From positions 36,706,001 through 36,770,000 of the forward strand of contig CM119371.1 of assembly GCA_051294905.1 (NCBI GenBank): a stretch of 64,000 bases of DNA. Reading direction: 5' to 3'. This DNA is from Botryllus schlosseri. Lineage: Eukaryota. Below are positions 45,414-60,161 of the stretch, piece by piece. The translations under genes and the position numbers were made by a program. The first letter of the stretch is position 1. Every line of letters starts with the position of its first letter. Below the pieces are notes generated by a model that searched no databases, was not told where the DNA came from, and saw nothing but the letters and a program-made list of their open reading frames with translations.

Positions 45414-46351
45414 ACGGTCAACAAAACTTAAAAAACATTGGGCAAATCATCTAGGAGTCGTTTGCGGGGTTTTCGAGACCGCTGATTACAAATATGAAAT
45501 CGGTTTTGCCAGATTGTCTCTACTTTAGAAGATACGTATGCCGCCAAAAAGGCCAAATTACTGCATTTACTCCCTAAATAATTCATTTGATAGAAAGTAT
45601 ATCGTGTTTTTTACTTTTACACCTAACATGAATAGATAGTTGACTATGAAGAGCTCTCATGTCGTCCTCGGTTATTCTGTCAATATTAGCATGATCAGAT
45701 GTGAGATCTTTGTCTGTGAAAAAGCAGTCTGTGAAGCCTAAAAATTGTATATTTCCACAATGAAAATATATTTTCTGCACCACCATATGGTCATTCCATC
45801 AAGATGAAAGAGGAGTGTAAAGCTATCAAATATGTCCTTGTGAAGCTTAACTAAAATACTCATATGCGACTCTGCATTTTTGTCTTGTGAAAGGAAAATT
45901 TTCTGCTCAGCCAACAAAGTGGGTAATACCCCACTGGGTATACCTGTACCCCTATCAAACGAGAAGCATAAAGCTGATATCTTTGATGTACCTCAGATTC
46001 GAATACGTACGAAAGATTCCAATTTCATATCAAGGAGCTCATGGAATGGACTTTATACCAGGATGTAGTTAATACAACTTTTTTGAAGATCACAAAGCAT
46101 CCTGTTACAAATAGTTGGTCCGAAAATTGGCATCTGCTTATGGAAAATTTGGAGCATTAAAGCTCACTTCTTGCTCAGTCGTCTTGATATATTTCCTGAT
46201 CATCTTTATGATTAAGGTGAGGAAGACGGGGAAGGTTCCGCGAAGACATCAAAACAGCAACAAAAATGATACCAGTATCGATGAGATGAACATATTAACC
46301 TTTCGAGACACTGCACTAAATTGCTTAAAAGCGAAAATCATACGAGACACA
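45414..46351 (+). pseudogene. Decayed DNA-transposon transposase (probably CMC-Chapaev3-like), left part; host site of the palindrome
   Basis: Frameshifted translation of about 45950-46340 gives LSNEKHKADIFDVPQIR..KDSNF, FFEDHKASCYK*LVRKL..AY..FG, SIKAHFLLSRLDIFP, EEDGE/FREDIK and YQYR*D. These match the remembered consensus GIFVGPQIR / FLGNHKA / KIHFLHSHLDFFP / EHGERFHQDI / RYQGRW. An end-like ACGGTCAACAAAA lies at 45414. Confidence 0.7.
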
Positions 46352-48306
46352 AGTAGTTAGTATGATCGCTCGTGAGGTGGCAGGGGCTCTTATGGGCGCG
46401 GCGGTGAGGTGCCTGAAAACTCGTGGTGGTGATGGCACCCTTTTACACCCCCTCTCGGCGGTGAGGTGCCATGTGTTCTTATGGATGCGGTGATGATGGC
46501 ACCCTTTCGGGTATAGGCTGCGGTGGTGAGGTGCCGCGAAAACTCGTGGTGGTGATGGCACCCTTTTACAACCCCTCTCGGCGGTGAGGTACCTATGTGG
46601 TGATGATGGTACCCTTTCTGGTATAGGCTGCGGCGATGATGTGCCTACGGATTCTTGTGTCGTAGTGAACTAACGTTGTGGATATAGGCTGCGGTGATGA
46701 TGTGCCCACGGATTCTTGTGTCGTAGTGAACTAACGTTGTGGATATAGGCCGCGGCGATGATGTGGCTGTCGTGTATTATTACACGGTTTCTACTGATTC
46801 ACCATGTGTTCTTATGGGTGCGGTCGTGATTCGTACTTTCAGACATCTCTCGCGTGGTGTTGAATAGTCACCAACAATATCCGCACAAACGGAAACGTGG
46901 CTTGCAAGAGGATTAAGCAGTGCGATCTATATTCCGAATGACCTGCGCGCTGAATTGTTTCACAGCCAACCGCGGTGGTCGTGACTCGCCTTTTTTACTA
47001 TAGGTGGTGACGGTGATTCGCCTGTTGTGTATTCTTACGGGATCTGTGGTGACTCACCATGTATTCTTATGGACGCGGTCGCATGCGGCTATTGCGTCTT
47101 ATGGCGGGGGTGGTGAGCGGCTATTGATGCTAACACGAAACCCGGGGTGGCGAGCGGCACTTATTTCTTATGGCGGCGGGTCTTATTTCTTATGGGTGCG
47201 GTCGTGATTCGTACTTTCGGTATAGACTGCGGGCGGTATGTCGTACTTTCAGCAAAAAAGGTGTGAAATAGTTTACCAAGTCTAGGAATCACTTGCAAGG
47301 TAATATTTTGGTATTTAGTTTACCACAGAGCCGGCGTAGACGGCGATTCGAATATCAACAATAACAACGCTCACGAATTAACACTTCAAATAGCTGTGAA
47401 ATAGTTTGCAAAACCCCGCGATCGCTGACAAGATAATGTCTCGGTCATAACCATCTTTCACGACTTGGTGTCATAACCACACCGATCGCTCACGCGGTGA
47501 AATTTTAGTAATCAGTTTGTCACAGAACTTGATATCGCTGGTAAGATTTAACAAGTAACGAATAACAGACCGCGGTAACTTGAAAAGCGACAAATTGTCA
47601 CTTATTTCCGCTCTAACCCTAATCCTTTGTGAAGTGAACGCTTATTCAAAAGGGTGTGATATAATTTTAAAATCCAACGACCACTCACCGGATAATACTT
47701 CAGACATAGCAATTCCTCATACCCACCCACAAGGTAATATTTCGGTAATTAGTTTGTCACAGATTCGTCACAGGCGGTGATTGGAAAACCGACAATTTGT
47801 CACTCGCCCGCGATCGCTATATGTTTCACACCTCCAGAATAGTGGCTGACTTTAGTTGCGTGATAAGATCCATGAAAATATTCCATCAATGTGTTAGCTT
47901 ATCAACTTGAAATGAAACTCACTACACAAATCAAGTCGATTCGTATCTGAATGTTTTAAATCGGTACAACTCTAATCCTTTGACAAATCCCTTAACGCGT
48001 TTTTGTTGAATCGAACGTAACCGAATATTACTGACGCCGACTTTCAGCCGCATCGAATTATTCGCACATTCCGCGTCGCTGTTTTCACACTTATAGAATC
48101 AATACCAACTATAACTCTACAAGAATCAAGAATCACAAGTATGTGCATTACACAGTTATTGTCTTTATTAACTTGAAATCAAACACTTAACAAAAACACG
48201 CAACTAATCATTTGGCAACTCTAGCATTACCAAAAAATTCCAGTATTGTTGATTGAAAATCCTTGAGTCATTATTATCAAAAATGTTATAGTACCGCATC
48301 GGGATC

Positions 48307-48423
48307 CATTCGCGGGATGTACTAAAGGTAAATCCAAATAATCCACATTCGCGGGATGTACTAAAGGTAAATCCAAATAATCCACATTCGCGAGATGTAC
48401 TAAAGGTAAATCCAAATAATCCA
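48307..48423. repeat. 39-bp tandem repeat x3 (mirror at 57661-57777)
   Basis: CATTCGCGGGATGTACTAAAGGTAAATCCAAATAATCCA occurs three times, with one substitution. Confidence 0.95.
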
Positions 48424-59400: not shown

Positions 59401-59732
59401 ATCCACAACGTTAGTTCACTACGACACAAGAATCCGTAGGCACATCATCGCCGCAGCCTATACCAGAAAGGGTACCATCATCACCACATAGGTACCTCAC
59501 CGCCGAGAGGGGCTGTAAAAGGGTGCCATCACCACCACGAGTTTTCGCGGCACCTCACCACCGCAGCCTATACCCGAAAGGGTGCCATCATCACCGCATC
59601 CATAAGAACACATGGCACCTCACCGCCGAGAGGGGGTGTAAAAGGGTGCCATCACCACCACGAGTTTTCAGGCACCTCACCGCCGCGCCCATAAGAGCCC
59701 CTGCCACCTCACGAGCGATCATACTAACTACT
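53495..59732 (-). repeat. Right arm of the 6238-bp inverted repeat
   Basis: Reverse complement of 46352-52589 with only a few substitutions and no visible indel. Confidence 0.97.
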
Positions 59733-60161
59733 GACACAATAAATTGATTATATTCGAATTGATTATTTTGATTTTATAGTAGGTGTTTGACGTAAAACTG
59801 ATTGAATTATTGCTATGTTATTTGGGTATTTAGATAGATAGTTATATCCATGATTGGAGTCTATTTATTTATCAACGTCTCCGACTATGATAAATCTGAT
59901 AACCCTAAATATAATGACGTTGCTGTATTTAGATTTGGGACAGTCTTCAGCGTGTAAAAATAACAAGTAGATTGACGGAGCCATTCTTTTATTTGGCTCT
60001 TTCAGCGAAAATGTGAGATTTTAGTCAAAGTAGCCCCATGGGTTATCTTGAAAAGCAGAGCCAATTTGCAAAAACTATAAGGTCATATTCGGAATCAGTG
60101 CCAATCAGAATTCCCAAGACCACTCATACTTTGTCTGCCTAAAAATATGAACTGACCGGTG
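59733..60161 (+). mobile_element. Right part and terminus of the interrupted Chapaev3-like transposon
   Basis: Ends ...TGACCGGTG followed by TAA (CAC..GTG-type end). The subterminal TCATATTCGGAATCAG mirrors CTGATTACAAATATGA at about 45482. Confidence 0.55.

Follow-up and report, generated by a model that had tools for sequence, protein, structure and literature searches.

This locus raises the question of what kind of element a nearly perfect 13.4-kb palindrome in the chromosome of Botryllus schlosseri represents, and how its two arms have come to be identical. The element lies within a 64,000-nt stretch of DNA (contig CM119371.1 of assembly GCA_051294905.1, positions 36,706,001 to 36,770,000), referred to here as the window. 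An inverted-repeat search of the window showed that 93% of the 13,381-bp element is palindrome, consisting of two 6238-nt arms that are 100% complementary with 905 nt between them. The left arm (46352..52589, + strand) starts with AGTAGTTAGTATGATCG, and the opposite end of the element is the reverse complement of the same sequence; the right arm (53495..59732, − strand) is the exact reverse complement of the left. Both element ends carry AGTAGT termini. The sequence GACACA was read at 46346..46351 and again at 59733..59738, forming an exact 6-bp TSD. These features were as claimed in the first-pass annotation when all were measured again. Within the left arm, a 41-nt tandem array of 7.3 units is located at 51313..51617 (+ strand), with its mirror at 54469 to 54771. 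The unique center, or spacer (52590..53494, + strand), is conserved across the family when copies are compared.

Between positions 46000 and 60000, 29 stop-to-stop frames of at least 80 codons were identified, the longest of which has 126 codons. The description of the element as having no long ORF therefore held for frame length, but a short spacer frame (53071..53388) turned out to be a conserved gene. Of the 25 arm frames of at least 60 codons, none was open and ungapped in more than three of eight other copies, leaving the left arm without a conserved reading frame, and no Rfam families or tRNAs were identified in 46000 to 60000. No rve integrase or transposase frame was found in the element using the frame list and the arm-frame conservation check, with the integrase also sought by comparison with Polintons. 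Neither blastn nor tblastx aligned the arm and center with the polymerase regions of two Polintons.

Copies fetched from 10 other loci on 7 contigs were palindromes in every case, with arm alignments of 2998 to 6810 nt and identities of 97.9 to 100%. All 10 ended in AGTAGT and were flanked by perfect 6-bp TSDs, no two of which were the same; the search proposed in the first-pass annotation for further palindromic copies with their own TSDs was thus successful at each locus. Arms, center and the arm/center layout were common to all 10. The center could be aligned in six of seven copies at 87 to 90%, in either orientation, and 39 other scored copies shared 90 to 94% identity over nearly its full length, among 974 first-look candidates. 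The palindromic family is very abundant, with about a thousand first-look candidates, and it is heritable, as the palindrome including its 905-nt center is passed on and not made anew at each locus. No description of palindromic or gene-less Polinton derivatives was found in the literature searched.

Vertebrate Mavericks are described as having 6-bp TSDs and (AGT)2 ends (PMC8097293), and gene-bearing Polintons with such features were identified in the same genome. The Polinton at C1:5923771-5942033 carries an rve+chromo integrase, an A32-like ATPase and pPolB, and has a 443-nt inverted end, AGTAGT ends and the TSD GCCGAG. The second, C2:20634793-20650377, combines a 714-nt inverted end and the TSD GCAGGC with integrase, ATPase and polymerase pieces; its terminal 29-mer equals that of the foldback element at 28 of 29 bases. 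A third Polinton end shared 81% identity with foldback nt 1 to 204 (E value, 3e-48), and another shared 91% with nt 444 to 622. Homology to Polinton inverted ends from gene-bearing copies covers the terminal region 46352..47250 (+ strand). This region starts with (AGT)2 and contains two ∼123-nt units in which motifs keep fixed positions, and framework motifs were found at equal offsets (66/189, 99/222, 124 and 158-9) in the terminal ∼270 nt of foldbacks and Polintons. Further inwards, 48040..48291 (+ strand; element nt 1689 to 1940) resembled the DNA just inside a Polinton inverted end (73% identity; E value, 6e-29; and 71%), whereas the arm beyond ∼2 kb had no likeness to the two Polintons compared. 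The arms had been supposed to hold several kilobases of internal Polinton DNA; this is not supported, as likeness to the two Polintons was limited to the first ∼900 nt and to nt 1689 to 1940 of the arm. Sequence comparison supports the identification of the element ends as Polinton/Maverick ends, as first proposed, given that the local gene-bearing Polintons share the AGTAGT termini, 6-bp TSDs and terminal layout.

Since its ends are homologous to Polinton ends and its TSDs are of equal length, mobilization of the element in trans by a Polinton helper is plausible. All Polintons by definition encode pDNAP and an integrase (PMC5499653). A search with the Polinton polymerase protein gave 438 first-look candidates; the 38 that were scored were all at least 92% identical, and 34 of these had no stop. 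Candidates for the gene-bearing partner envisaged in the first-pass annotation are present, in the form of Polintons with integrase, ATPase, pPolB and related ends. In the C2:20634793 copy, whose terminal 29-mer is nearly that of the foldback, the polymerase gene lies in at least two frames.

The element probably belongs to a high-copy, heritable, Polinton-dependent family with ∼6-kb non-coding arms and a ∼0.9-kb center carrying one gene, which is mobilized by a helper, has its arms renewed by copying and is satellite-like rather than a dead by-product. We infer four parts of this model: that a helper is needed, that replication starts at the ends, that the arms are copied by fold-back, and what the protein does. 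Lacking genes for a polymerase, an integrase and a capsid, the element would have to be integrated by proteins of the Polintons that share its genome in great number and whose chromodomain rve integrase likewise produces 6-bp TSDs. Replication, probably also by Polinton proteins, would proceed from the (AGT)2 ends. We prefer a scheme of strand-displacement synthesis in which the new strand would copy one arm and the center and then fold back onto its own first arm, making substitutions and large indels symmetric in every round of replication. The hairpin formed in this way would present a duplex Polinton end at which another round could begin, and each lineage would need the small protein for its own spread. 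A founding snap-back in the ancestor of the family is possible, as is a packaging limit on element length. More tentatively, the family could be a true satellite of Polinton-type viruses in an animal genome: a gene-poor linear replicon in the form of a giant palindrome, rebuilt by fold-back in each round, with stuffer arms that bring it to packageable length and one private helper-hijacking protein, carried in helper capsids from cell to cell or between individuals and now at about a thousand integrated copies, or roughly 2 to 3% of the genome. We regard this fuller version as conceivable but doubtful.

Left arms of different copies were 77.4 to 92.2% identical in 54 of 55 pairs, well apart from the 97.9 to 100% seen between the two arms of a copy. 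In the closest pair of copies, with left arms 98.2% alike, 71 substitutions were present in both arms of a copy versus 5+1 in one arm only, and large indels were also symmetric between arms. The two arms of a copy evolve together, probably through a copying process, and fold-back rebuilding in every round would explain such lock-step change. Gene conversion or recombination in place, acting on integrated and possibly old copies as in other large genomic palindromes, is the strongest alternative, though on balance we think it unlikely. It would account equally well for arm identity, and the excess of both-arm over one-arm changes (71 versus 6) is in keeping with it. The window copy has identical arms, yet its nearest scored relatives are only 94 to 95% alike, as would be expected if the copy were old and still undergoing conversion. 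Against conversion in place, symmetric large indels would need long conversion tracts, TSDs are perfect in all 11 copies, and the arms of some copies drift apart; those of C10:4552024 are 97.9% alike, and just one of the two carries an insertion of ∼620 nt. In another sample, contigs diverge from the sequence precisely where the element is inserted, a hint that the insertion is recent and polymorphic. No record among those listed bridges the junction of flank and element. In runs labelled with other organisms, 25 to 31% of the sampled words were present. Two Polinton copies on C2 are 100% identical, their 500-nt flanks included; this pair was considered as a segmental-duplication test of conversion in place and, being a Polinton, was uninformative.

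The conserved spacer frame contains an ATG at 53113 and a TGA at 53386 to 53388, giving a 91-codon gene (53113..53388, + strand) for the protein P0001. In 26 of 26 other copies this gene was ungapped with its frame open, and another 20 of 20 copies had it intact (46/46 read). Searches of the genome with the center gene returned 1175 and 1216 first-look candidates, and 145 and 149, respectively, of the 150 best-scored matches had no stop; only the best candidates were scored, a set that favors intact copies of the gene. The dN/dS values in the true frame were 0.44, 0.22, 0.33, 0.16 and 0.16, compared with 0.55 to 1.69 in shifted frames. Purifying selection was seen within and between three gene subfamilies that are 60 to 68% identical to each other. 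Four database proteins of 91 to 93 amino acids (59 to 86% identity) start and end as the 91-aa protein does. Judged by these patterns in the sequence, the center encodes a 91-aa protein under purifying selection, and the element is not the non-coding molecule it was taken for. Support from RNA is negligible: of 12.9 million records, 101 could be placed, 98 of them only partly within the stretch, and almost none lay over the gene. Among the sequencing runs listed as holding the sequence, none was of RNA.

No similarity was detected that would assign the protein a function. Searches of Pfam and PHROGs gave nothing below an E value of 0.07, PDB sequences gave no match, scores against the ESM Atlas (≤0.84) were at chance level, and tblastn against 10 loci from six Polinton copies gave E values of 0.6 or worse. 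No longer proteins related to it were found. In the representatives library, matches were to the protein's own cluster and to one WD40-repeat protein; the latter (E value, 5e-6, summed over five near-identical repeats) was regarded as repeat inflation and rejected as a relative. The best fold model reached middling confidence (pLDDT, 76.4; the other four models, 40 to 53), and the protein is predicted from it to be all-beta. Small heat-shock or CS domains (HSP20/alpha-crystallin/CS, a beta-sandwich fold of 7 to 8 strands) headed the results of each of three fold searches, and all matches were weak (Foldseek E value, 0.024 or worse; Z of 5.2 with an rmsd of 3.8 Å over 72 residues; BFVD E value, 0.034). 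The protein may act as an adaptor towards the replication or packaging proteins of the helper. That the gene is instead passenger cargo or benefits the host, for instance by acting against Polintons, with no part in propagation of the element, seems improbable. The lack of an assigned function and of similarity to any Polinton protein compared would suit such a role, and selection at the level of the element should be weaker where about a thousand copies can complement one another in trans. The purifying selection within and between subfamilies speaks against this alternative, and a frame intact in nearly all scored copies fits selection on each replicating lineage.

Adenovirus incomplete particles carry inverted left ends, and the foldback element shares with snap-back defective genomes a near-complete palindrome, two copies of one genome end and, as we infer, dependence on a helper. 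AAV snapback genomes (PMC8235507) are an example of such snap-back, or copy-back, defective viral genomes. The first-pass annotation had read the locus as a single snap-back defective genome that arose from a Polinton through one template switch, entered the chromosome once and codes for nothing. Its structure does match the definition of a snap-back genome given in PMC13506859, and its ends are those of Polintons. A single accident at this locus is nevertheless contradicted by the 10 of 10 other palindromic copies with the same arms and layout, the inherited center with its 974 first-look candidates, the conservation of the center gene, and the greater part of the arm being unlike Polinton DNA, and this reading is now very improbable. 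Unlike defective genomes, the foldback is a heritable and diversified lineage with a conserved center and a selected gene of its own; its insertions occupy hundreds of chromosomal sites, and helper-type sequence is recognizable only in the outer ∼2 kb of its arm.

Foldback transposons such as Drosophila FB consist mostly of inverted arms with tandem repeats inside, and these arms are more alike within than between copies; FB itself makes a 9-bp TSD. The B. schlosseri element resembles them in its long inverted arms with tandem repeats and in its higher identity within than between copies, and so might be a conventional cut-and-paste foldback from a different superfamily with a coincidental likeness to Polinton ends. 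This too has very little probability, as the motifs of the terminal ∼270 nt coincide one by one in position with those of Polinton ends, with E values down to 3e-48, the TSD is 6 bp as in Polintons (in 11 of 11 copies), and no transposase frame is present. The arms are also ten times the usual length and mostly not tandem-repetitive, and where such transposons have a transposase or nothing, this element has a small conserved gene. Long reads joined into a fold-back chimera would also yield 100% arm identity, but the probability of an assembly artefact is negligible, since the same architecture, each time with its own TSD, recurs at all 10 other fetched loci on 7 contigs and makes misassembly untenable, the element has precise ends and an exact TSD, and arm and center sequences are abundant in contigs of three independent samples.

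The helper-dependent family favored here can be set beside Polintons themselves and their smaller associates. With Polintons/Mavericks it shares the 6-bp TSD, the (AGT)2 ends, a terminal ∼270 nt homologous to local Polintons, and a length of 13.4 kb that falls within the 12.7 to 24.6 kb given for intact vertebrate Mavericks, whose inverted ends measure 46 to 1447 nt (PMC8097293). It differs in having no pPolB, integrase, ATPase, protease or capsid genes, in inverted ends of 6238 nt versus 443 and 714 nt in two local Polintons, and in a small gene without counterpart in the Polintons compared. Virophages, transpovirons and polinton-like viruses, as presented in PMC5499653, offer an analogy in lifestyle, being likewise small elements of linear-DNA type with inverted ends; the foldback would similarly rely on a larger relative. 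Unlike them, it has no capsid or replication gene, resides in an animal host, forms a giant palindrome and is known from sequence alone.

Polintons/Mavericks are regarded as viruses as well as transposons, and their replication and parasites are little known. If the model is correct, Polinton ends and one small gene suffice for massive amplification, and the hundreds of independent insertions provide a natural system in which to examine how a palindromic genome replicates by protein priming and how 6-kb inverted repeats evolve in concert. Long perfect palindromes, about a thousand of them, are tolerated by the genome. The 91-aa protein, new, strongly selected and without known relatives, could be a direct handle on the interaction of satellite and helper.

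Terminus pairs in the genome were at one point sorted by a rule of size, with those of ∼15.5 kb taken as Polintons and those of ∼13.4 kb as foldbacks. Among the ∼15.5-kb pairs, C2:20634793 alone was shown to be a Polinton. The rule was rejected, as several pairs of 15.3 to 15.7 kb carry the 91-aa gene at their midpoint.

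The element in the window (46352–59732) contains a single inverted repeat, with 100% complementary arms of 6238 nt each (46352–52589 and 53495–59732) that lie 905 nt apart. Its 5′ end is AGTAGTTAGTATGATCG, its 3′ end is the reverse complement of this sequence, and GACACA is present on both flanks. Stop-to-stop frames reaching 80 codons numbered 29 between positions 46000 and 60000, the longest having 126 codons. The first-pass annotation had correctly described the arms, the ends, the GACACA flanks, and the lack of a long ORF. No Rfam family or tRNA was identified in the same interval, and the 25 arm frames of at least 60 codons were each open and ungapped in at most three of eight other copies. 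The arms, which include tandem arrays, look like non-coding filler. A 1.3-kb inverted pair elsewhere in the window (30652–31943 and 40465–41739; 91.7% identity, ∼8.5 kb apart) is unrelated to the element and its relatives, here termed foldbacks, and probably represents two copies of another transposon.

Searches covered the 495.5-Mb host assembly (G000; 219 contigs, cited as C1, C2, etc.), in which the window is G000:C1:36706001–36770000. The terminal 600 nt gave 2348 first-look candidates; for the best 40, which were scored, 74 matches were listed, mostly as +/− pairs 12.6 to 20 kb apart. All ten terminus pairs that were fetched were giant palindromes (arm-to-arm alignments, 2998 to 6810 nt; 97.9 to 100% identity), collinear with the window copy through arm and centre, and each started with AGTAGT and carried a perfect 6-bp target site duplication (TSD) of a different sequence. 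The terminal 29-mer, allowing up to three mismatches, occurred 92 times forward and 98 times in reverse (reversed control, 0 and 0); among the matches listed, 35 +/− pairs were counted, mostly 11.9 to 16.4 kb apart. The 905-nt centre gave 974 first-look candidates, and the best 39 other scored copies were 90 to 94% identical over nearly its whole length. It was found in either orientation in six of seven fetched copies (87 to 90% identity), the seventh having a 341-nt centre without the family sequence. Since the family has arms, ends, and centre in common, the palindrome must have originated once, centre included, and been inherited since. The same palindrome and centre in other copies exclude misassembly, and an accident at one locus, as first supposed, was not borne out by ten palindromes in ten other copies and the 974 candidates for the centre.

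Copy lengths were 12.7 to 14.4 kb in 10 of the 11 copies studied, and two Polintons measured 15.6 and 18.3 kb; these lengths are compatible with a packaging limit and are no test of one. In two variant copies, C7:1611684–1624355 (fetched as L009/L010) and C9:2122050–2140330 (L027/L028), the arms are only 3.8 and 3.0 kb long (100 and 99.8% identity) and enclose 5 and 12 kb of asymmetric or rearranged sequence, with TSDs that are still perfect. These copies derive from the foldback family by deletion or rearrangement.

A gene-bearing Polinton was identified at C1:5.92–5.96 Mb (5923771–5942033). It is 18.3 kb long, with inverted ends of 443 nt (99.5%), AGTAGT termini, and the TSD GCCGAG, and its frames encode an rve integrase core with chromodomain, an A32-like ATPase, and, over 1214 codons, DNA_pol_B_2. 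Its polymerase gave 438 first-look candidates in the genome; the best 38 scored were all at least 92% identical, and 34 of these had no stop. A 1653-nt direct repeat (99.2%) flanks this Polinton asymmetrically, with 35 nt separating it from one end of the element and 1.9 kb from the other (G000:C1:5922084–5923736 and 5943939–5945585; L029:2084–3736 and L031:3939–5585); it may belong to some other repeat or reflect a rearrangement. For four more Polintons, the 5 kb upstream of the polymerase gene was fetched and in all four cases included an end. One of these ends aligns with foldback nt 1 to 204 at 81% (E value, 3e−48), and the others match at 70 to 74%. A Polinton at C2:20634793 (15,585 bp; inverted ends, 714 nt; TSD, GCAGGC) has a terminal 29-mer one base off that of the foldback. 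It carries the integrase, the ATPase, and capsid-side frames whose DNA is 97% identical to the first Polinton, and its polymerase gene is split over at least two frames in that copy. This 15.6-kb Polinton occurs in two copies separated by 83 kb (C2:20634293–20650877 and C2:20717646–20734230; L037–L041), with 100% identity across the ∼4.5 kb compared per end per copy, including 500 nt of flank; either segmental duplication happened very recently or the assembly duplicates this stretch.

Framework motifs were found at equal offsets from the end in foldbacks and Polintons (66/189, 99/222, 124, and 158–159), revealing two ∼123-nt units, and the stretches between motifs vary by lineage. On these shared offsets and the end matches, the foldback ends are homologous to the ends of gene-bearing Polintons of the same genome, and the link between termini and Polinton genes raised in the first-pass annotation was thereby found. 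Short boxes between the motifs are repeated inside an element and differ between lineages, as compared in window positions 46375–46650 and the first 300 nt of fetched stretches L009–L027, L029, L034, L036, and L037. The box after GATCG.TCG.G is AGGTGG, ATTCGCC, AACTAGC, or AACGGCC in foldbacks and GTGTGCGC in one Polinton; such boxes may be lineage-specific protein-binding sites. Against the full-length sequences of two Polintons, arm similarity was confined to the first ∼900 nt and to nt 1689 to 1940, the latter corresponding to DNA just inside the Polinton's inverted end, and translated comparison with both gave no credible match to any Polinton gene. The several kb of internal Polinton DNA that the arms had been thought to contain were thus not recovered.

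Polintons by definition encode a polymerase and an integrase (PMC5499653), and vertebrate Mavericks have inverted ends of 46 to 1447 nt, sizes of 12.7 to 24.6 kb, (AGT)2 or (AG)3 ends, and 6-bp TSDs (PMC8097293). The element has neither polymerase nor integrase and so does not itself qualify as a Polinton, but as a dependent derivative of one. Snap-back genomes are defined as symmetric palindromes from reverse-complementary copying (PMC13506859), AAV snapback genomes being an example (PMC8235507). No description of a palindromic or gene-less Polinton derivative was found in the full-text literature (Repbase, subscription journals, and supplements aside), including the available portion of one review (PMC6431247).

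The centre carries a gene for a 91-aa protein, P0001 (frame 53071–53388; ATG at 53113; 91 codons). The frame was open and without indels in two sets of other copies (6 of 6 and 20 of 20). Across these 27 sequences with the window copy (26 distinct), none of at least 106 substitution events created a stop (chance probability, 0.005 to 0.009). P0001 gave 1175 first-look candidates in the genome; the best 150 scored were full length or at most two residues short, with 85 to 100% identity, and 145 had no stop. A divergent database relative, P0004, gave 1216, of which the best 150 scored were 68 to 74% identical and 149 had no stop. The two match lists may overlap, and scoring the best candidates biases both towards intact copies. 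Many match sites fall halfway between two termini, or two inner-arm matches, from the other searches, for example, C1:17987205 between C1:17980979 and C1:17994299, or C10:4558998, at the centre of a fetched copy. In 20 further copies that were fetched, the gene was intact throughout (91 to 93 aa). Together, the genes sort into three subfamilies (A, B, and C; 60 to 68% identical). Nei-Gojobori dN/dS in the true frame was 0.44 within A (465 pairs), 0.22 within B (55 pairs), 0.33 for A-B (341 pairs), and 0.16 for both A-C (62 pairs) and B-C (22 pairs), versus 0.55 to 1.69 in both shifted frames. With this range and a frame open in 26 of 26 other copies, the molecule can no longer be called non-coding. 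Four unnamed database proteins (91 to 93 aa) are 59 to 86% identical to P0001 and share its start and end; as the best scored matches to P0004 in this genome reach no more than 74% identity, the gene probably also exists elsewhere.

No relatives of P0001 were found in Pfam, PHROG, or PDB sequences, no longer relative was identified, and matches in the ESM Atlas were at chance level. The sole outside match among 1.84 billion representatives, a WD40-repeat protein, was taken for repeat inflation. AlphaFold, given 32 natural sequences, predicted an eight-stranded all-beta model (mean pLDDT, 76.4; pTM, 0.68), the other four models having pLDDT of 40 to 53; residues 47 to 56 are disordered. Three structure searches placed small heat-shock/CS-domain beta-sandwiches first, all weak matches (Foldseek E value, 0.024 or worse; Z of 5.2 with rmsd of 3.8 Å over 72 residues; BFVD E value, 0.034), and the predicted likeness is one of shape, not function.

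Left arms of different copies shared 77.4 to 92.2% identity in all but one of 55 pairs, the exception being a pair at 98.2%, versus 97.9 to 100% for the arms inside one copy. When all four arms of the closest pair were aligned, 5766 columns were alike in all four and 1001 had a gap; in 71, both arms of one copy differed from both of the other, and the two arms within a copy were unlike each other in only 5 and 1 columns for the two copies. Substitutions become symmetric between arms, and so, evidently, do indels and tandem-array lengths. The arms of the window copy are identical, though its nearest scored relatives are only 94 to 95% alike; homogenisation is therefore certain, and its mechanism is not.

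The foldbacks combine Polinton-type ends and TSDs with symmetric arm evolution and one selected gene, and they lack replication, integration, or capsid genes; Polintons are abundant in the genome, their polymerase frames mostly open among those scored. A helper integrase would insert the element, and a helper polymerase and terminal protein would replicate it from its (AGT)2 ends, a slide-back role of such end repeats being discussed in PMC8097293. In each round, the nascent strand would fold back after the centre, so that one arm is copied from the other. Symmetry extends from substitutions to large indels, and we therefore favour this fold-back copying over mismatch repair alone; phage phi29 polymerase offers a known analogue in the inverted chimeras that it makes. 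In-situ conversion between the arms is the main rival to fold-back copying as the source of their homogeneity and appears less likely. Even with about a thousand copies potentially able to complement it in trans, the gene is under selection, which suggests cis-preference, or single genomes passing between cells or hosts, and in turn points to a satellite-like life.

In contigs of three sequenced samples, word depth over the element was hundreds of times flank depth, a ratio that is not a copy number. Among 12.9 million raw RNA reads of run X24, 101 matched the stretch, 98 of them only partly, in both directions and with almost none over the gene. Among the 31-mers sampled from flank plus element end, 31 and 25% were present in runs X6 and X7, respectively, which are labelled as two other organisms; the source could be the element, the end of a Polinton, or DNA from a close relative. 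In sample X4, two contigs with a depth of 50.3 each, together the whole local depth of 100.6, follow the left flank to 46352 and continue with 8 nt at odds with the element sequence, and in sample X1 a contig at full flank depth stops exactly at 46352. As this is the last base that filled and empty sites would have in common, these contigs give a hint, and no more, of an insertion polymorphism at this locus.
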